Source: Isurus oxyrinchus (lineage: Eukaryota). Taken from it: DNA of 64,000 nucleotides. The position numbers were made by a program, and so were the translations under genes. The stretch lies in the NCBI GenBank assembly GCA_026770705.1, contig JANJGN010000005.1, positions 191,952,001-192,016,000 of the forward strand, given 5' to 3'. The notes beneath the pieces are model-generated. The model was not told where the DNA came from. It saw nothing but the letters and a program-made list of their open reading frames with translations, and did no database searches. Below are positions 7,744 through 57,862 of this stretch, piece by piece (position 1 is the stretch's first letter; each line of letters begins with the position of its first letter).

Positions 7744-8052
7744 TGTGGTAATTATGGTTTTATGTAATGTGTGGTATACCATTAAGAAGGATGTTCTAAG
7801 GGAAGATCACATGATCTTATGTGACCAATAGCGGAGTAGTGCAAGCTACCTCAGTGGGCAGTAGTCTGAGTTAGCAAGGTGAAGTATGGAGACAGGGTTT
7901 GAGTTGAAAGCACACAAGTGTAGCTGCTGAGCACCTTTGTAAATAAACAGAATGTGTTCCACCGAAGAACCATTTGCTGATCAACTCTTGTCTATTGTAC
8001 CAACTCGACCATCCCACAACAAGCGTGGAACCTGGATCCATAAGTCCCAACA
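7744..8052 (+). mobile_element. Solo LTR of the Gypsy element found at 18.9-22.6 kb (family 1)
   Basis: TG...CA bounded with internal AATAAA. Reverse-complement match to 21595-22610 once the MITE there is removed. Confidence 0.75.
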
Positions 8053-16840: not shown

Positions 16841-19084
16841 TTTATCCCAATATCCCTGTAAACTTTCAGACAAATGATTTTACCACAAAAAAAAGTTAGA
16901 CACTTTTTCTGTTTGCTGGTTATAAAAGATTATATCCAGAGTTATGTAACATTAGTCTAATTGACAATTCTGTTATAAAGAATTCTGTTCAACCTAATAG
17001 AAATGGCAGAATTGCACTCCAATCAATTTCTTTCCACATGAATACTTCATCTTGGGACTCAGACTTAATTAAAATGGAATTGATCTGCTCGCTAATCTTA
17101 ATTCCCGGTGATTCTAACATGTTATTTAAGGACATTCGACTTTGCTTGATATTTTCATCAGCTTGTGCAGAATATATCACCCTTAAACCCCTCAGAAAAG
17201 CACACACACACGCATGGCTGACCGTACAGCTCAGGTACAATAAGACTCTGAGAAGACAGGAGCTATGTTATTTTATTTTGCTCCATAGCACCTCAATCCG
17301 ACAATCATCTTGGAGCCATTCAGTCCCTCTGATTTGGTAGTTCAGGTATAAATAGTCAATGTGGAGGTTTGTTACCAGAATCCAGTAGCGCGATTGGGCA
17401 TTAATCCCAACAGTCATCCCCCACCTTGTGTGAGGGGCATTGATTCTGCGATCTCTCTGTTAAATCTACATTGGGTCTCCTCCTCCCCACAAACAGATGG
17501 AGCTCCAGCCTCAGGTAAACATTCTGTTAGGTTACACCAATCATCCTGGAGGAGCCTCAATGTGCACTCTCAGTCCTAGTCTTGGACATACATTAGCATC
17601 AATTGTCAAATGGATATAAGCCCAGACCTGGATTTAGATTGTGGTGTGAATATGCTTGCAGAAGAATGCGTAGTTAATGTGCTCACGTTTCTACCAGCTG
17701 GAACTGAATGCTCAGTTGGGAGGTTTTAACAATAACCGCTGCTGATGTGTTTTTTTGTTGAAAATGTCATTGTAGGATTGTCTCTGTTGATGAGCCTGTC
17801 TTCTTTAATAAAGTAATAGCTTTGGAAGGAGATGGGTGAGCCTTTCTTGATAATCACACCTCCCATCTCCAAGGGAATGGAAGTAAAACTGGAAAGGAAG
17901 GGTCAATAGGAAGCTTTCATGTTACAGGTTTTTTTAAAAAAACTATCAATGCAGTTGTTTTGCTCCCTTTAAATTTGAAAGGAAAAATGCAAGATAATTA
18001 CATGGTGTTCACCACAGAGGAGTGTGATAGCTTTGTCAGATTACAACAGCAATTCTGTGTTCTCAGGATCAGGCGATGACAATTTACAGCTGCCTTGCTT
18101 CTTCAATGTTAAAATGTCACATCGCTGTCAATTTAAAAATGTTCATGCTTGTTTCCAAATCCTTCTCTGGTCTGTTCGCTTCCTCTCTCTCTGCCACCTC
18201 CTCCAGTCCGACCAACACTCAAAATACCTGGCCTCCTGCCTGCCCACCACTACCCAACTCCTTGGCTCACCATTGCTGGCTGTGCTAGGCCAACAACCAA
18301 CAGTCCCAGCGTCACCCACAGCTTCTCCTGTCTGGCTACCGAGTATTTACTGATTTTCCTGATTATGTTCATTCAGTGCTGTCAGTTGTGGTGATGGTGC
18401 CTCTGGTCACAGTTCTCTCTCGCTGATTCAGTGTGATCATTCCCACTGCAGCAACAGGAATTGATGTGTCTTGCACTGCCCTCTGTGAGTGTGCCACTGA
18501 GGTGAGTGGTGTTGCTGCGCTGTCTCTCCAAGACTGTGAATTTGAGCTCCTGCAGTACATGGTGCAGTTGTATTTTGATCTATCAGCCTGGCCGCACTCC
18601 CTCCCACCCTGCACTCTCCATAAACTTGAGGTCATCCGAAACTCTACTGTCCATGTCCTAACTCACAGCGGATCCCAATCCTCGAGCACCCCTGTATTCA
18701 CTGACAGTTGTTGGTTGACACAGCAGCCATGAGGTTACTTGGTCTTCACAAAGGTCATCCTAACTGAATATCTCTGATTATGAATATTGCTGGTCCTGCT
18801 GCCCGGGTGCCTAGAGAAAGAATAAATCAGAGATTAGGAGGTTAGTTGTTGGATCTGGTGGATCATCTAAGGAAGAGAGAAACTCTACACCAACAAGTGA
18901 CTCCACCAGTGTCCACAACTGGGCCAACGTTTCCTGGTGACTGAACTCAATCCGGTACAGACATGTCTGATGTGTCTGATGTTCCTGTAAGAGTTGATGA
19001 TACAGAGCTGCAGGTGCCTTCTGAAGCACCTGATGTTCAGACAACTCCAGAGAAGGAGATTGCTAACAAAGCATCTGAAGTTGT

Positions 19085-19678
19085 TCCCATGAAAGGCCCC
19101 ACATAGACAATGTGTAATTGCACCTATGGCCTCCCTGGCCACTCCCAAGGGTGTAACGGAGCTGTTGATGGTAACTTTGCAGTTGCTGACATTGCACACA
19201 ATTCTTCACTAAATTCCCTATTTCTCCATCCATCCCAGGCCATCATAGATAGCTGTGTGTTATGGTCTTCATTCGGGAAATTCCTGGATGGGCATTGTGT
19301 TGTTCAATTAACAATGGCTCTCATCCCTTTGGAGGAAATATCACTTGTGCTCCCCACAATAAGATACCATCCTGGCTGGTTAATTTCACTGTTTCTGTTG
19401 AAATACAGTTTCATTTCATCAGATACAGGCTCTTATGGCAAAACCATGTAACGTTTGTTGTCGTACTTGGTCTGGGTCCTGACTTGTCTGGTCTCTGATC
19501 TGTCGAGCACAAAGCGGTGAGGAATCTAAGAAATTTAACAGTAAAACAAATGCCTGTGGAACTGGGACATGATCATCATTTTCTTGTAAAGGCAAATGAC
19601 TAAGGGCATTGGCACTTGCAGTTTTATTTCCAAGCCTATGTACAAAAGCATACTCGTATGCTGCCAGGATTAAAGCCT
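19085..19678 (-). pseudogene. Gypsy RNase H C-terminus and integrase N-terminal zinc finger remnant
   Basis: ALILAAYEYAFVHRLGNKTASANALSHLPL...DGILLWG...HPGISRMK...WWPGMD...CVQCQ...PLHPWEWPGRP, truncated just before the catalytic core. Confidence 0.85.
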
Positions 19679-19845
19679 TATTTGTGCTTCTGTATCTTCC
19701 TTCTAGCACTGGCCTTAATCTCAGCTTTCTTTTCAACTTCACTATTGGCCAGACTTCTCTCAGATGTAAGGTTTGACTTGAGTGAACTCAGTGGCTGAGA
19801 CTCCCAGAATTTCATCATCTGCCTCTTGGAAAATTCTGCGACTTT

Positions 19846-20223
19846 TGCTTCCAAAGCCTCTTTGGCTACGTTTAGCTGATTCTTCAGCTCTTCCGTCTCT
19901 TTTCTGTATTTGTTTGCTGCCTCCTGGAAAATTGAACAGTGTTGTGTCTTCTCTGCCAACTTATCCTTCAGTTTATTCAGAGAGGTGCTGAATTTTTTCT
20001 GTTTCTCTTCATAATTTTCCAGAGGTACAAACTTTGACCTGAGGGAATCTTGTCATGTGTGAAGGTCTTTTAACAGGTTTTCTTTTCCCCTGTGAAGGTT
20101 GCTCACCTCATCTCGAACTCTGTCATCAGGCAGGGTCTCTTCCAGTTTCATCAGCTGTTCCTCCAGGTTTTGGCTTAAGACAGCCTGCGTTTCTTCAGCT
20201 TGTTGAGTCCTTACACACTCCTT
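19846..20223 (-). pseudogene. Captured coiled-coil host-gene fragment, UACA-like
   Basis: KECVRTQQAEETQAVLSQNLEEQLMKLEETLPDDRVRDEVSNLHRGKENLLKDLHT*QDSLRSKFVPLENYEEKQK/FSTSLNKLKDKLAEKTQHCSIFQEAANKYRKETEELKNQLNVAKEALEA (one stop, one 1-nt frameshift). Aligns by eye to the recalled human UACA coiled coil; needs BLAST confirmation. Confidence 0.6.
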
Positions 20224-20279
20224 TTCCGAAACAGGAACACTTCCAGCTTCCTTTTGGAATCTCAGTGGTCACTCAAGGT

Positions 20280-20590
20280 TGATTTCCCTTGGCCAATTTC
20301 ACCCTAGAGGGCTTGGTCCTCTGCCTCTCAATACCAACACTGGTAGCTTTGCCAACTGACTTCCATAGTGGACAGTTACTCTGCTTTTGCCTTTGACTTG
20401 AAAATCTTCACCCATATATGTTTTTAGTTTAGCCTCAGTTTCTTCCACATTTAATTGCTGTTCACCATTATTCAGTTATCTGAAGGTATGTTCCCCAGTT
20501 ACTGTAGTGGAAGACCCCGTGTCCACTTCCACTCTAACAGATTTGCCATTTACTTTCACTGTGACAAATATTGGTTCTGTCTTTCCAACT
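20280..20590 (-). pseudogene. Gypsy aspartic protease remnant
   Basis: IFVTVKVNGKSVRVEVDTGSSTTV (DTG active site) and VVLRGRGPSPLG.NW, with stops. Confidence 0.8.
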
Positions 20591-20689: not shown

Positions 20690-21450
20690 GGCTCTATCCT
20701 TCACTGCCTCATTACATGTCCATTTCTATGGCAATAAAAACACTCGAACTTTTTAAACTCCAATCGTTAAAAGGCTGCTTGTTTCCACCTCTATTGAAAT
20801 TATTCCTTGTTTTCGCTGCTAAGTCATTTTTTTCTCTTTTTCCTGTTTCCTGCTTCTCGGCAAAGTCTTACATTTCCGTGTCCTTTTTGGCTGGGGCTTC
20901 CTGCCCAAAGTGGAGCTCGGTGCCATTTTGTGCTCCCCTGTGTAGCTTCTGAATCTTTCAGTGCACTTTCAATGGCCAGCGCTAGCTCTTGTGCCTTCTT
21001 AAAATCCAAATTTGTTTTGGATAACAATCTCTTCCGGATGGTGCCTTTATTCACACCGCACACTAAACGATCCCTGAGCGTGTTGTTTGGAGATGGACCA
21101 AACTTACAATGTTCCGTTAGCTGCTTCATACTTGGCACCAAACCAGCAACTATCTCCCCTGGGGCTTTATTTCCTGAGTTAAACTTGAAGCGTTGCATCG
21201 TTACTGAGTGCTTTGGCTGATAATGACACTTCATGTGGTCCACCAATTCATCAAGATTTTTCAAATCTGGGGCACTGGGTGCTGTCAAATTTTGAATCCA
21301 GCTGTAGGCTTTATTCCCACATCTAGATAAGACGACGCTCCCCTTTTCTCTTCCCCCGTAATCTTGTCCACTGGAAAAAAGAAGGTGAGGCGTTCAATGT
21401 AATGAGACCAGTTGTCCGTGGCTGGATCATAAGGATCAATTCTTCTGAAT
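20690..21450 (-). pseudogene. Gypsy gag remnant
   Basis: RIDPYDPATDNWSHYIERL...APSAPDLKNLDELVDHMKCHYQPKHSVTMQRFKFN...LTEHCKFG...LRDRLVCGV...IRKRLL, then a decayed zinc knuckle CFYCHRNGHVMRQ. Confidence 0.85.
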
Positions 21451-21699
21451 TGCAGAATTCTGAGAGAGAGTTATTTCGTCAATTTGAACTGAACTTCTAC
21501 TTACAATTACTGTGCCTCGATTTCATTTCTCTTGATTCCTTCCGTTAACTTGTTTTATCCTCGCTTTATCCTGGCTTTATTTTCATTGCCAGTTTGTTAG
21601 ATCATGTGGAACCTAGTCTAACGCTTGTTGTAAGTGGTGGCTGACTTGGTACTATAGATAGAGTTGACCAGCAGACACTTCTTCGGTGGAAAACATTAT

Positions 21700-22424: not shown

Positions 22425-22630
22425 TATGTTTATTTACAGAGGTACTCAGCAGCAACTACATGTGTGCTTTCACTTCAAACCCTATCACCATACTACTGAC
22501 TACTAACTAGCCCACGCTACTCCTCTATTGGTTTCTCAAGATCATTGATCTTCCTTTATAACATTCTTCTGAGAGGTATATTCACATTAGATAGAACCAT
22601 AATGACCACATTAGTGAAGGCTGTATTTAC

Positions 22631-26067: not shown

Positions 26068-26719
26068 GGGATCTTGCAGAGTTGCCTAACTCTTGCCACT
26101 TGCCACCAGCATCATATGTTCAATGGCACTGGGAATGTGTGTACTACTAGAATGGAGGGACGAGATCTTCCAAAGTCCTCCTGTCCCTCAGCATCAGATC
26201 ATGCACTTAACTGGGCCTTGCTGGGGCCTTGTCTGAGAGCGCACTGATGTGGTCTTGGAGGTCCTTTGCTTCTGTAGGTAGTCCAGGCTGCAGCAGCATC
26301 ATGATTCTCCCTCTTGATGGCAGAAGCCCATTATCTGTACAGTGAATGACCCCTGAGCCAGGGAACTGGTACAGAGGGGTTTGACCCAGCACCAGCTCAG
26401 ACCAGAAGAGGGAAATCCAGCCCTAGGAGTGATAATCCTGTCTAATGCAGGTGAGAGAGGAGGCCAGTTAGCCATATCTTTATATCACATGAAGATTATA
26501 GCAGATAGCAGGCGGAATTTATTTGTCGCTCTCTCCCGTAGTGAGTTTAATGGCAGGCGGTGTGGGGGGAACAGTGTGGCAGGAGCTGAATAATCAGTTT
26601 CCCACTGGCATAAAATGATGGCAGGATCTTCTGCTCCCACCTGACATGGCAGCTCACCATTTCCACCAGAGGCTGACACAAAACCGCTTTGCATCCTGTT
26701 AATGGGATATAGGTGAAGG

Positions 26720-27690
26720 CTCGACTGGGATCTTCTCCCCCCACCAACCCCACCAACCCCCTGTCCAACTGGGATCTTCTCCCCCCACCCCACCCCACCA
26801 ACCCCCTGCCCAACTGGGATCTTCTCCCCCCACCCCACCCCACCAATCCCCTGCCCAACTGGGATCTTCTCTACCCACCCCACCCCCACCAACCCCCTGC
26901 CCAACTGGGATCTTCTCCCCCCACCCCACCCCACCAACCCCCTGCCCAACTGGGATCTTCTCTACCCACCCCACCCCCACCAACCCCCTGCCCAACTGGG
27001 ATCTTCTCCCCCCAGCCCACCCCACCCCCACACCACCAACCCCCTGCCCGACTGGGATCTTCTCCTCCTCCCCACCCCACCACCAATCCCCTGCCCAACT
27101 GGGATCTTCTCCCCCCAGCCCACCCCACCCCCACACCACCAACCCCCTGCCCGACTGGGATCTTCTCCTCCTCCCCACCCCACCACCAACCCCCTGCCCG
27201 ACTGGGATCTTCTCCTCCTCCCCACCCCACCACCAATCCCCTGCCCAACTGGGATCTTCTCCCCCTCCCCCCCCCCCACACCACCAACCCCCTGCCCGAC
27301 TGGGATCTTCTCCTCCTCCCCACCCCACCACCAACCCCCTGCCCAACTGGGATCTTCTCCCCCTCCCCCCCCCCCACACCACCAACCCCCTGCCCGACTG
27401 GGATCTTCTCCTCCTCCCCCCCCACACCACCAACCCCCTGCCCAACTGGGATCTTCTACCCCTCCCCCCACCACCAACCCCCTGCCCAACTGGGATCTTC
27501 TCCTCCTCCCCCCCAGCCGCCCGCACCATCCCCCTACCCGACTGGGAGCTTCACCCCCCGCCCCCCACCCCCCACCAACCCCCTGCCTGACTGGTATCTA
27601 CTCCCCTCTATGACCCTCTCCATGACCCTGCTGCTCGACTGGGATCTTCTCCCCCCTCCACAACCTCCCCTGCCCGACTGGCATCTCCCC
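26720..27690. repeat. Minisatellite, ~45-55-bp unit AACCCCCTGCCC(A/G)ACTGGGATCTTCTC+C-rich spacer
   Basis: About 20 tandem units, inside a probable TIR element starting GGCGGAATTT at about 26511. Confidence 0.95.
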
Positions 27691-38400: not shown

Positions 38401-38519
38401 AGGATCTTCCCAGTCCTGTGGGATCAGGATTCAAAGTGAGACTGGGAGGAATTCGAGAGAAAGATACCCTGCAGGATCCAACACAATCCCACCTTTGGGC
38501 AATCTTCATGGAGCTGGGT

Positions 38520-40250
38520 CAACACCAGCAACAGCTATCTGCCCAGCAACAGCTATCTGCCCGGCAACAGCTATCTGCCCGGCAACAGCTATCTTCCCGG
38601 CAACAGGGACCCGCCCAGCAACACCCCCGGGCAGCAGCTACCCACCAGCAACACCCCCGGCAGCAGATACCCACCAGCAACACCCCCGGCAGCAGCTACC
38701 CACCGGCAACACCCCCGCAGCAGCTACCCACCAGCAACACCCCTGGCAGCAGCTACCCACCGGCAACACCCCTGGCAGCAGCTACCCACCGGCAACACCC
38801 CCGGCAACAGCCAACCACCCGGCAACACTCCCGGCAGCAGCTACCCACTGGCAACACCCCTGGCAGCAGCTACCCACCGGCAACACCTCCAAGCAGCAGC
38901 TACCCACTGGCAACACCCCCAGCAACAGCTACCCACCGGCAACACCCCCGGCAACAGCTACCCACCGGCAACACCCCCAGCAACAGCTACCAACCAGCAA
39001 CACCCCCGGCAGCAGCTACCAACCAGCAACAACCCCGGCAACAGCCAACCACCCAGCAACACCCCAAGCATTAGCTACCCACCAGCAACACCGCTGGCAA
39101 CAGCTACCCTCCGGCAACACCCCCGGCAGCAGCTACCCACCAGCAACACCCCCGGCAACAGCTACCAACCAGCAACACCCCCGGCAGCAGCTACCAACCA
39201 GCAACAACCCCGGCAACAGCCAACCACCAGCAACACCCCGAGCATTAGCTACCCACCAGCAACACCGCTGGCAACAGCTACCCACCGGCAACACCCCCGG
39301 CAACAGCAACCCACCAGCAACACCCCTGGCAACAGCTACCCACCGGCAACACCCCCGGCAACAGCTACCTACCGGCAACACCCCCAGCAGCAGCTACCCA
39401 CCGGCAACACCCCTGGCAACAGCCAACCACCCGGCAACACCCCCAGCAGCAGCTACCCACCCAGCAACACCCCCGGCAACATCTACCCACCAGCAACACC
39501 CCCGGTAACAGCCAACCACCCGGCAACACCTCCAGCAGCAGCTACCCACTGGCAACGCCTCCGGCTGCAGCTACCCACTGGCAACACCTCCGGCAGCAGC
39601 TACCCACCAGCAACACCTCCGGCAGCAGCTACCCACCAGCAACACCCCCGGCAGCAGCTACCCACTGGCAACACCCCTGGCAACAGCTACCCACCCGACA
39701 ACACCCCCGGCAGCAGCTACCCACCAGCAACACCCCCAGCAACAGCCAACCACCCTCGGCAACACCCCCAGCAGCAGCTACCAACCAGCAACACCCCCGG
39801 CAACAGCCAACCACCCAGCAACACCCTCGGCAACAGCCAACCACCCGGCAACACCCCCGGCAACAGCCAACCACCCGGCAACACCCCTGGCAACAGCCAA
39901 CCACCTGGCAACACCTCCGGCAGCAGCTACCCACCGGCAACACCCCCGGCAACAGCCAAACACCCGGCAACACCCCCGGCAACAGCCAACCACCCGGCAA
40001 CACCCCCGGCAACAGCCAACCACCCGGCAACACCCCTGGCAACAGCCAACCACCCGGCAACACCCCTGGCAACAGCCAACCACCTGGCAACACCTCCGGC
40101 AGCAGCTACCCACCGGCAACACCCCCGGCAACAGCCAACCACCCGGCAACACCCCCGGCAACAGCCAACCACCCGGCAACACCCCTGGCAACAGCCAACC
40201 ACCTGGCAACACCCCTGGCAGCAGCTACCAACCAGCAACACCCCCGGCAG
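38520..40250. repeat. Minisatellite, ~29-30-bp unit CAGCAACACCCCCGGCAGCAGCTACCCAC
   Basis: Over 50 tandem units with variant CAGCCAACCACC. Source of the 428-aa and 239-aa ORFs. Confidence 0.95.
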
Positions 40251-40439
40251 AGGCTGCCCTCCCAGCAGAGGCTATCTGACTGTCAATTTTGATTTATGGG
40301 GTACAACTTCTTTGCAATAAATCCCCAATCGTGAATTATGTAACAAATCATTGGTTCACACTAAACTTAACCATCAGGTAAGACTGAACACTTCAGATGG
40401 TAAATTCCAAAGACCTGTTGACAATTAAAAGGTAGAAAG

Positions 40440-42232: not shown

Positions 42233-43035
42233 CCAGCAGAGGCTACCCCACCCTCCAGCAGAGGCTACCCCACCCTCCAGCAGAGGCTACCCCACCCCTT
42301 CCCCTGGCTGAAGCTACCCCACAGCCCCCCACTCCCCCGGCAGAGGCTACTCCACACCCCCCCCCCCCCCCGGCAGAGGCTACCCCACCACCCCCTGCAG
42401 AGGCTACCCCACCCCCCCGGCAGAGTCTACCCCACCCTCCAGCAGAGGCTACCCCACCCCTTCCCCTGGCAGAGGCTACCCCACCCTCCAGCAGAGGCTA
42501 CCCCACCCCTTCCCCTGCCTGAAGCTACCCCACAGACCCCCATCCCCCCAGCAGAGGCTACCCCACCCCCCCGGCAGAGGCTACCCCACCCCCCCGGCAG
42601 AGGCTACCCCACCCCCACAGCAGAGGCTACCCCACCCCCACAGCAGAGGCTACCCCACACCCCCCCAGCAGAGGCTACCCCACCCCCACAGCAGAGGCTA
42701 CCCCACCCCCACAGCAGAGGCTACCCCACACCCCCCCCGGCAGAGGCTACCCCACCCCCACAGCAGAGGCTACCCCACCCCCACAGCAGAGGCTACCCCA
42801 CAACCCCCGGCAGAGGCTACCCCACCCCCACAGCAGAGGCTACCCCACACCCCCCCGGCAGAGGCTACCCCACCCCCACAGCAGAGGCTACCCCACCCCC
42901 ACAGCAGAGGCTACCCCACAACCCCCGGCAGAGGCTACCCCACCCCCACAGCAGAGGCTACCCCACACCCCCCCGGCAGAGGCTACCCCACTGCCCCACC
43001 ACCACCCCCCCCACCCCTGCTACCCCACCCCCGGC
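42233..43035. repeat. Minisatellite, ~22-26-bp unit CAGCAGAGGCTACCCCACCCC
   Basis: About 30 tandem units. Confidence 0.95.
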
Positions 43036-43680
43036 AGTGGTAGGTATGCAATCTGCATAATTAATGACCATTCTCGGGCTGTTTGGATGTACCACTGGCA
43101 CCTTCCCAGTGGCGGGTGGGCCCTACACTGAGGCAGGGGCCTGGGTGGGCGGGTGACTCCTGTTCTCACAATCCCTCCCACCAGAGTTACAGCCATCACT
43201 GGGCCACAGCTGCTGCAGGGGAGTTACCTGTCAATCAGGGCAGCCTAGGGACAGCTCCGGCCAGGCTTTATTCCATTAAAGTCAATACCTCTTGAGTGAG
43301 TGTCTCAAGATAAAGGCTCCCTCCTTATCGCCTTCCAACAGTGGCAGCCCCTGTCCTTCCAAAGCTGCCTGCCCTCTGGGTCTGCTCGCTATCATTTATT
43401 GGATGAAGGACTGGAGGTCTATTAATCCACTACCTCTGGGCTGATGTCTCAGGCAGGCAACCTGACAGTTTGAGAGAGATTGTGACCCAGAAAAGCTCCC
43501 GATGCACTCAGAAGACTCTGCCCAGAGAGAGATGGCACAAATGCGATGGGCCGAATGGCCTCCTTCTGTGCTGAAATTATTCGATGGTTCTAATTACCGT
43601 TTGTGTCCCATAACTTATGGTTTTATTCTCTCAGTCCTTTGGTAGTGCAGAACTTAAGTTTTGCTGAAAGGAGGCATTTT

Positions 43681-45499: not shown

Positions 45500-47406
45500 A
45501 GGCAGCATTTTCCTGTTGGCGAGTGGGATGGTGGGGGGGGTGGCTGCATGTGTGGGGTGGGGGGCTGGGGGGGGGTGGTGTGTGTGGGGGGAGGTGGGGG
45601 GCTGGTGTGTGGGGTGGGGTGGGGGGGGGTGTGTGGGGTGGAGGGGGGTGGGGGTGGTGTGTGTGTGGGGGGGGGGTGTGTGTGGGGTGGGGGGGGGTGG
45701 TGTGTGGGATGGGGGGGGTGGTGTGTAGTGTGTGTGTGTGGGGGGGCTGGTGTGTGGGGTGGGGTGGGGGTGGTGCGTGGGGTGGGGGTGGTGTGTGTGT
45801 GGGGGGCGGGTGTGTGTGTGGGGGGGGGTGTGTGTGGGGTGGGGTGGGGGGGGTGTGTGGGGTGGAGGGGGTGGTGTGTAGTGTGTGTGGGGGGGGCTGG
45901 TGTGAGGGGTGGGGTGGGGGGTGTGTGTGGGGTGGAGGGGGGTGGGGGTGGTGTGTGTGTGGGGGGGGGTGTGTGTGGGGTGGGGGGGGGTGGTGTGTGG
46001 GATGGGGGGGGTGGTGTGTAGTGTGTGTGTGTGGGGGGGCTGGTGTGTGGGGTGGTGTGGGGGGGGGTGTGTGGGGTGGGGGTGGTGTGTGTGTGGGGGG
46101 CGGGTGTGTGTGTGGGGGTGTGTGTGTGTGGGGTGGGGTGGGGGGGTGTGTGGGGTGGAGGGGGGTGGTGTGTAGTGTGTGTGGGGGGGCTGGTGTGAGG
46201 GGTGGGGTGGGGGTGTGTGTGGGGTGGGGGGGGTGGGGGTGGTGTGTGTGTGGGGGCGGGTGTGTGTGTGGGGGGGGGTGTGTGTGGGGTGGGGGGGGTG
46301 TGTNNNNNNNNNNNNNNNNNNNNNNNNNNNNNNNNNNNNNNNNNNNNNNNNNNNNNNNNNNNNNNNNNNNNNNNNNNNNNNNNNNNNNNNNNNNNNNNNN
46401 NNNNNNNNNNNNNNNNNNNNNNNNNNNNNNNNNNNNNNNNNNNNNNNNNNNNNNNNNNNNNNNNNNNNNNNNNNNNNNNNNNNNNNNNNNNNNNNNNNNN
46501 NNNNNNNNNNNNNNNNNNNNNNNNNNNNNNNNGGGGGTGTGTGGGGTGGGGGTGGTGTGTGTGTGGGGGCGGGTGTGTGTGTGGGGGGGGTGTGTGTGGG
46601 GTGGGGGGGTGTGTGTGGGGTGGGGTGGGGGTGGTGTGGGGTGGGGGGGGGAGTGGTGTGTGTGTGTGGGGGGGGTGTGTGTGGGGTGGGGGGGGGCGGT
46701 GTGTGTGTGTTGGGGGGGTGTGTGTGGGGTGGGGGGGGGGGGTGGTATGTGGGGGGGGGGGGGGTGCGGTGGTGTGGTCCCGCTCACCAACGCGTTAAAT
46801 GCCTCACGGTGATGTGGGGTGTGCATCCTGACATTACCACGCGCCATTCTGATCCTCAGTTCGGGGGGATCGCAGCCGTGTCGACTACACACCTGCTGAG
46901 CTGTCAAAGGCCTATGAAGGCCTGTTAAAGACTAATTAAAGTAATTAACGGAGCTGCCCGTCCAACCTTAAGTTTGGTGAGCGAGTGAAGATCCCAGGCA
47001 GCCTTCACATTTATCATGGAACCTCATCCACGGGCGGGATGAGCCTCCATGAATGGTTATAAATTAAATAAAAAATTTTGAAAACATTCCCTGACATGTC
47101 CCAGCTCATGTGACACTGTCACATGTGGGGATATGTTTCAAAAGTTTTTTTTTCCCTTTATTTAAATTTTAAAATCTTAAACTGATCTCCCTGAGGACCG
47201 TCCGGGCAGAGCACCCGCTCAGAGAATTCCTGCCCCCCTCTGCCCACACAGGGAGCCCTCAGCGCTTACGGGTGTGTGTCACGACGGGATGGCTTTAATT
47301 GGCCCGCCCACTTAAAATGGCGGCGCGTCCCTGATCGGGGGTGCCTATCGGGTTCATGGCCATCTGCCCCCACAAAAAACCCCCCAACAGGGGGAAATTT
47401 CTGCCC
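45500..47406 (+). mobile_element. Full-length Harbinger-type MITE containing a >1.2-kb G/GT expansion
   Basis: TIRs AGGCAGCATTTT / AAATTTCTGCCC and TSD CAT (45497-45499, 47407-47409). The MITE body resumes at about 46775. Confidence 0.8.
45530..46770. repeat. G/GT-rich low-complexity array with an assembly gap (N 46304-46532)
   Basis: (GTGTGTGGGGTGGGGG)n-like; 229 Ns. Confidence 0.95.

Positions 47407-56908: not shown

Positions 56909-57862
<954 letters not shown>

Follow-up and report, generated by a model that had tools for sequence, protein, structure and literature searches.

The window considered here, that is, the whole 64,000-nucleotide stretch of Isurus oxyrinchus DNA that was analysed, holds a Ty3/Gypsy element, presumably of the Mag-like clade, in which only ~590 nt lie between the end of the protease (~20272) and the start of the RNase H tail (19677), while its relatives have ~1.3 kb of RT/RNase H at that point. 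What stands in the place of the reverse transcriptase, by which route it arrived there and whether the element has made use of it are the questions raised by this locus. A reading made from the sequence alone had noticed the shortened interval, followed by the integrase zinc finger, and had explained it by the capture of a UACA-like host coding fragment. The replacement of RT/RNase H is confirmed, the element being non-autonomous, with no reverse transcriptase of its own and a coiled coil where it should be. On balance, the evidence favours an in-frame coil of UACA origin which, in a translated Gag-protease-coil protein, probably acted as an oligomerisation module.

The window copy and its insert

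The element is read on the minus strand and consists of the following parts, given in its own sense:

22425..22610 (-): first part of the split 5' LTR, 74-76% to both LTRs of the full-length relative L057
21693..22424 (no strand assigned): later insertion (~730 bp) that separates the two parts of the 5' LTR and is bounded by short terminal inverted repeats; the relatives' LTRs are without it
21625..21692 (-): last part of the 5' LTR; a TGG primer-site-like motif comes next, at ~21590
20856..21449 (-): broken gag, from the translation; Retrotrans_gag E 0.083 only, colinear with RT-bearing relatives
20700..20742 (-): broken sequence motif which we take to be zinc-knuckle-like
20272..20586 (-): aspartyl protease, interrupted by stops (Pfam Asp_protease_2, 24.5 bits, cut-off 24.3)
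19880..20226 (-): captured UACA block 1 (host exon nt 1552-1898, ~aa 904-1020 of XP_078097328.1)
19790..19888 (-): captured UACA block 2, corresponding to the host exon from nt 2340 onwards
19720..19790 (-): spacer of coil-like sequence, derived from another LTR family, B (sequence match to B)
19678..19720 (-): Lys/Arg-rich tail and stop closing the gag-protease-coil frame
19480..19677 (-): RNase H tail and linker, in a different frame
19081..19380 (-): integrase zinc finger (Integrase_H2C2, 40.7 bits) and the beginning of the core
18858..19084 (+): 227 bp from the 3' internal region of the element, inverted

The copy is broken off at 19081, and no 3' LTR was found near the inverted piece, the 5' LTR standing alone. 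The deletion of the integrase core, previously ascribed to the element as such, is a feature of this copy and not of the family, as the core is recognised in L057 (rve, 37.1 bits). The insertion that splits the 5' LTR is probably a small DNA transposon, and joints bypassing it occur in public contigs; a possible 3-bp duplication was seen, and sequences related to the insertion are found elsewhere in the window as well as, at very high depth, in public contigs. Elsewhere in the window there are a solitary older LTR at 7748-7988 (+), 68-78% to the element's family, an exon of a TMEM74/neurensin-family gene at 56909-57862 (-) (Pfam PF14927, 35.4 bits), and tandem arrays of 45-, 29/30-, 23/24-bp and G-rich units at 26689-27680, 38500-40290, 42245-43050 and 45500-46300.

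Read in the sense of the element and in the protease frame, the 546-nt insert has one stop, at 20055 in block 1, against 14 in each of the other two frames. The 1-nt frameshift that had been placed within ...YEEKQKKFSTS... (KQK/FSTS) does not exist, since the DNA reads straight through there; a short out-of-register stretch lies later, at ~19835-19780. A Pfam search of the insert gave generic coil matches below the cut-off only. Over a 555-bp tract (19782-20337) which includes most of the insert, the window copy and L057 show only 13 mismatches, with flanks differing by 10-30%; L057 lies on the same contig, 1.9 Mb off and on the opposite strand, and has the insert's stop in common with the window copy. 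This looks like gene conversion between two old copies.

When 1.84 billion proteins were searched with the insert, five matches were obtained: two basking shark gene models, a ray UACA, a short unnamed protein and an unrelated bacterial repeat protein. The insert matches the shark UACA-like protein with E 1e-26 and 49% over residues 904-1030, and the parent was located in this genome as a 911-codon open exon on contig C25, 84% to the shark protein and, at nucleotide level, 73% to the insert over 297 nt. Thus, the host origin is upheld and narrowed to UACA itself. Ankyrin repeats, present in P0002, were not found in the insert, which is a derived fragment of UACA and not the intron-bearing gene; the UACA-derived piece sits inside one 2.7-kb exon, so that intron loss is uninformative for it. 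The last ~165 bp, suspected of being a second capture, turned out to be no such thing: 19888-19825 matches the same UACA exon, 450 nt further on, joined to block 1 by a 9-nt overlap which is also present in family B, and beyond 19825 the insert tracks family B sequence as far as 19738.

Copies, reading frames and the source of the coil

A genome search with the insert gave 4,038 first-look candidates, of which the best 40 were scored and found to be 87-95% identical. These copies, together with that of the window, are referred to as family or subfamily A. In all 29 of the other best loci examined, gag and protease come before the insert and the RNase H tail and integrase after it. Chimeric copies were counted with one 20-mer of the insert, which has 588 exact matches (control 0); as 6 of 10 integrase-anchored copies contain this 20-mer, family A is estimated at about a thousand copies or more. 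Among the first 30 matches by position, 27 have the order protease-coil-integrase, one also keeps RNase H and two are partial. When 29 loci were picked by the integrase region instead, at least 11 had the whole insert and 3 a part of it, and many others had RT/RNase H. Because these RT-bearing relatives, with the order protease-RT-RNase H-integrase, have LTR, gag, protease and integrase in common with family A, the insert cannot count as a regular component of intact members; it has no target duplication or poly(A) of its own and the same junctions across copies.

Full-length A copies measure 4.0 kb and have LTRs 85-91% alike, with ends of the TG...CA type. At the level of the family, LTR pairs are 84-91% alike in 8 of the 9 copies examined and 78% in the ninth, TGG follows the 5' LTR in 7/9, a purine tract precedes the 3' LTR, and the target-site duplication is an exact 5 bp in 4/9, with 4 of 5 bases in a fifth. 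No env-type Pfam match was found behind the integrase in the one copy scanned. Contigs of the family occur in two public runs, which were taken as RNA by guess and are no proof of transcription. Furthermore, in the white shark, a gene model that includes MHC class I-like parts, XP_041068262.1 (P0003), holds gag and coil pieces of the family in residues 355-439 (43% and 77% to the window, respectively), due to either exonisation or prediction error.

Frames were counted in 41 A copies, each scored where anchors aligned. The protease, whose catalytic Asp is retained in 54 of 62 family copies, is joined to the coil through a linker and is in frame with it in 27/35; block 1 continues in frame into block 2 in 40/40, a stop stands at the coil end in 30/37, and the integrase is out of frame with the coil in 31/37. 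Since the coil frame ends before the RNase H tail, the integrase is not fused, and the gag-pro-coil-integrase chimera of the sequence-only reading is not supported as a fusion. The internal coil stop of the window copy is found in 3/40 copies, while 23/39 have a protease stop at a CpG codon, as expected from decay after insertion. The gag-to-knuckle interval has an equal modal length in A, C (a sister subfamily described below) and RT-bearing copies, and is in frame in only 14/50 A copies, its many indels allowing continuity to be shown only poorly. A form retaining the RT thumb and RNase H (6/37) was considered as the ancestor of the window form and rejected, as the window tail matches subfamily C up to the stop.

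In a genome search with UACA residues lying outside the insert, 150 candidates were scored and yielded 239 matches, situated in LTR-bounded elements which constitute family B. The LTRs of B and A gave no match in four comparisons, and no match to A's gag, protease or integrase was found in B, so that the coil cannot have served a protease there. Family B carries ~1 kb of the UACA exon (~80% identity), an 87-nt spacer and two further host pieces, one from a third coiled-coil exon and the other from TPR. The parent of the spacer was not found, none of 150 scored matches having an open frame of >253 aa. The third piece comes from a 576-aa open coiled-coil exon (L164, G000:C19:47785259-47786986), with no Pfam or PDB match, which we take to be ninein-like. 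The TPR piece (Pfam, 31.4 bits) is 60% to shark TPR (E 2e-36). Over 282 residues the host TPR does not differ from its basking shark counterpart, from which the animal would be a lamniform shark. TPR exons 3-10 adjoin without their introns (0.1-8.5 kb) in 5/5 B copies tested, some exons being partly deleted, and this intron loss shows capture from mRNA.

Most host-host joints of B are overlaps of 6-24 nt, from which template switching in co-packaged RNAs may be inferred. One junction 21-mer has 189 exact matches. The junctions common to at least 2 of 24 B copies are in frame by majority in 14/14, and those occurring once are of mixed frames; this result is only supporting, because repeats among these genes are in frame in 60-86% of cases anyway (null for microhomology 0.60-0.86, p 0.001-0.12). 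From the gag-like start to UACA, B is in frame in 5/15, with variable lengths, and its coil has tolerated many in-frame deletions. No RT-bearing partner of B was found among 24 gag-anchored loci (flanks 1.5 kb), 22 of which carry UACA, the other two being deletion forms. Loci L054 and L055, in a small and a chromosome-size contig, are 100% identical over 9.7 kb, which reflects either duplicated assembly or recent duplication; L055 was left out of the counts.

The window insert is colinear with the B copy L054 for 490 nt, through an internal deletion into the spacer. Having B's rearrangements and nesting inside B, it does not support a direct capture of host mRNA by the window element; of the earlier proposal, capture at the RNA level is supported, whereas direct entry into this element is not. 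A search with a basking shark model revealed subfamily C and two intermediates (L208, L211), whose coils, like those of C, sit inside gag-protease LTR elements. Subfamily C (~3.1 kb; 108 exact matches to one 20-mer) has the order LTR-gag-protease-linker-coil-basic tail-stop-integrase remnant, without RT, RNase H or integrase core. In a tree of 348 nt and 25 chosen rows, the ladder order is host, B, three B copies, the intermediates, then C and A; A+C is sister to three B copies (support 97/93) and B monophyly is rejected (p-AU 0.006). Together, the common junctions and the tree show a transfer of the coil from B to a second Gypsy backbone, by which it reached family A second-hand. The basic tail ending in a stop is found in A, in the two intermediates and in almost every C copy, and the TPR and third-gene pieces have been lost from A and C. 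As A's tail is that of C up to the stop, A likely regained its integrase region, out of frame, from RT-bearing relatives; net divergence from these is near 0 for gag and integrase. A further locus, L142 (G000:C4:130409501-130419500), has LTRs of the A type around 5' sequence of the B type, a tandem repeat, the end of an A-type coil and some of RT/RNase H, and appears to be a recombinant of families A and B.

The history would then be as follows. An older LTR family, B, acquired parts of three coiled-coil genes, UACA, TPR and a third one, from mRNA, as intron loss shows for TPR, and a 0.5-kb part of its rearranged coil moved behind the protease of a second Gypsy backbone. This RT-less lineage split into subfamilies C and A, both of which presumably relied for their copying on RT-bearing relatives with the same LTRs, acting in trans. 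The hundreds of copies, the source family with three or four host genes and the protein-level selection on the capture had all been overlooked in the sequence-only reading.

Selection and the possible role of the coil

Branch rates were obtained from pairwise distances among 37 A and 11 B copies, five near-duplicate or partial copies being left out. On the A stem, the 0-fold/synonymous-capable site rate ratio was 0.39 (CI 0.22-0.65), compared with 0.78 (0.64-0.94) after insertion, and a second sample (28/29 kept, search motif masked) gave 0.35 and 0.79, respectively. Third codon positions were fastest for each of the four bases. Maximum-likelihood lengths by codon position were 0.139/0.203/0.461 on the B-to-A path and 0.085/0.096/0.114 at the tips, with the third position longest on each of the three parts of that path; on the shared branches, third positions of the coil were ~2.7 times faster. 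Selection went on along the A-only branch (0.022 vs 0.096). Moreover, the protease branch of C (0.055/0.030/0.246, with only 5 RT-bearing copies as third group) indicates that this RT-less sister subfamily kept its protease under selection. As coil and protease changed mainly at third positions, the fusion was likely made and useful to the element, Gag-protease-coil probably being a working, translated protein. Nevertheless, the test covers 116 codons, with codon-position rates rather than a codon model, and the coil is moderately constrained, at about half the neutral ratio, as might equally be the case for a harmless helical filler.

In the oligomerisation reading, the coil would hold Gag-protease molecules together where RT normally does, and would thereby aid protease dimerisation or co-assembly with helper particles. 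An engineered counterpart is the leucine zipper placed behind HIV-1 protease, which, according to the part of PMC3291649 drawn on here, raises Gag-protease multimerisation and cleavage but lowered particle yield; as in the shark element, a foreign coil stands directly behind the protease, but there by design and here by nature. More tentatively, and with rather less confidence than in that role for the window's family, it may be proposed that RT-less Gypsy parasites of sharks built a module from UACA, TPR and at least one more gene, relayed it between LTR lineages and came to depend on it as a stand-in for RT that held Gag-protease together.

Foremost among the alternatives, and unlikely as such, is that the fusion was translated with the coil as tolerated helical filler, the open frame and soluble tail stabilising Gag-protease and RNA without any binding. 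The moderate constraint and the deletions tolerated in B agree with this, and any soluble helix would be sufficient; yet a stop right after the protease would be simpler, while C, A and both intermediates retain the whole coil, the avoidance of stops could hardly by itself halve the amino-acid rate, and selection persists on the A-only branch. Rather improbable is a steering function, in which coil or basic tail would direct the particle or its RNA through nuclear import, RNA binding or docking to cytoskeleton, centrosome or nuclear pore. In its favour, tail and stop are conserved, and TPR, pieces of which B has, is by database name a nuclear basket protein, but A and C did without these pieces, and the tail is B's purine-rich sequence in a shifted frame, so that it may be basic by accident.

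That the insert is a neutral passenger, a purine-rich RNA whose frame and codon patterns arose from homology-guided template switching and mutation bias, is very improbable and already largely refuted: the microhomologies among these genes are mostly in frame and the insert is 63% purine as against 54% for the RT region, but the third-position excess is seen on three successive internal branches and not on terminal ones, for every base, and in two samples. Hardly credible, finally, is that the coil passed its long period under selection as a host gene, either a paralogue of UACA or a B copy that had been domesticated, and was then captured again, for, even if A's backbone is almost the same as in RT-bearing relatives and the coil has diverged widely, L208, L211 and C lie inside gag-protease LTR elements along the whole branch, and only a single long open UACA-type frame exists among 150 scored matches.

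If the oligomerisation reading is correct, this would be domestication in reverse, host sequence having been recruited and selected for the transposon. The graded series present in one genome, from host exon through source family and intermediates to two daughter subfamilies, offers a measurable signal of a captured host frame selected for the element's benefit, and allows one to test why gag and protease are retained by non-autonomous elements and whether the structural role of RT can be taken over by a foreign coil. In practical terms, the copies give hundreds of spurious UACA and TPR matches and have led to erroneous gene models in the annotation of the basking and the white shark (XP_078401457.1, XP_078395215.1 and the insert in XP_041068262.1).

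Comparison with known systems

No description of this shark family was found among the literature listings and abstract starts covered. Acutely transforming retroviruses have a defective genome in which a host coding piece is fused to the viral polyprotein, and they need a helper. In contrast to them, the shark element shows no envelope-sized frame and no captured signalling domain, has its fusion behind the protease and spread in the germ line.

RT-less LTR elements which keep gag or gag and protease have been defined in plants as TR-GAG (PMC6022998), with no host-derived module in the portion of that account considered here. Subfamily C fits their outline and comes close to their definition, whereas subfamily A, which keeps an out-of-frame integrase, is not a TR-GAG. 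Reshuffling among non-autonomous families has also been described in plants, to judge from the part of PMC13570524 consulted.

The mechanism would work like that of LTR-mediated retroposition and of maize Bs1. In LTR-mediated retrocopies, pieces of host mRNA replace part of the internal frame between the LTRs (Tan et al. 2016, PMC5131818, in the sections drawn on here and below). In the shark families, host sequence likewise lies in the internal frame, with intron loss in the TPR piece of B; the joining of several parent genes and secondary copying are common to both, as are, at most host-host joints of B, short overlaps. LTR gene capture is usually viewed as giving few young or dead chimeras; the retrocopies are young, with few copies where numbers are given, whereas the three shark subfamilies have at least 588 + 189 + 108 exact-motif copies. 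Also unlike the retrocopies, the shark coil moved between two LTR families and was selected along the element's own lineage. Two or three retrocopies with protein constraint are reported in the supplement of the same work, which may bear on the novelty of the present case. Maize Bs1, an LTR element with pieces of three host genes, partly in frame, was recopied after capture, reaching 1-5 copies with one piece out of frame (PMC5131818); the shark family, in comparison, is large, and all its identified pieces are coiled coils in their native frame.
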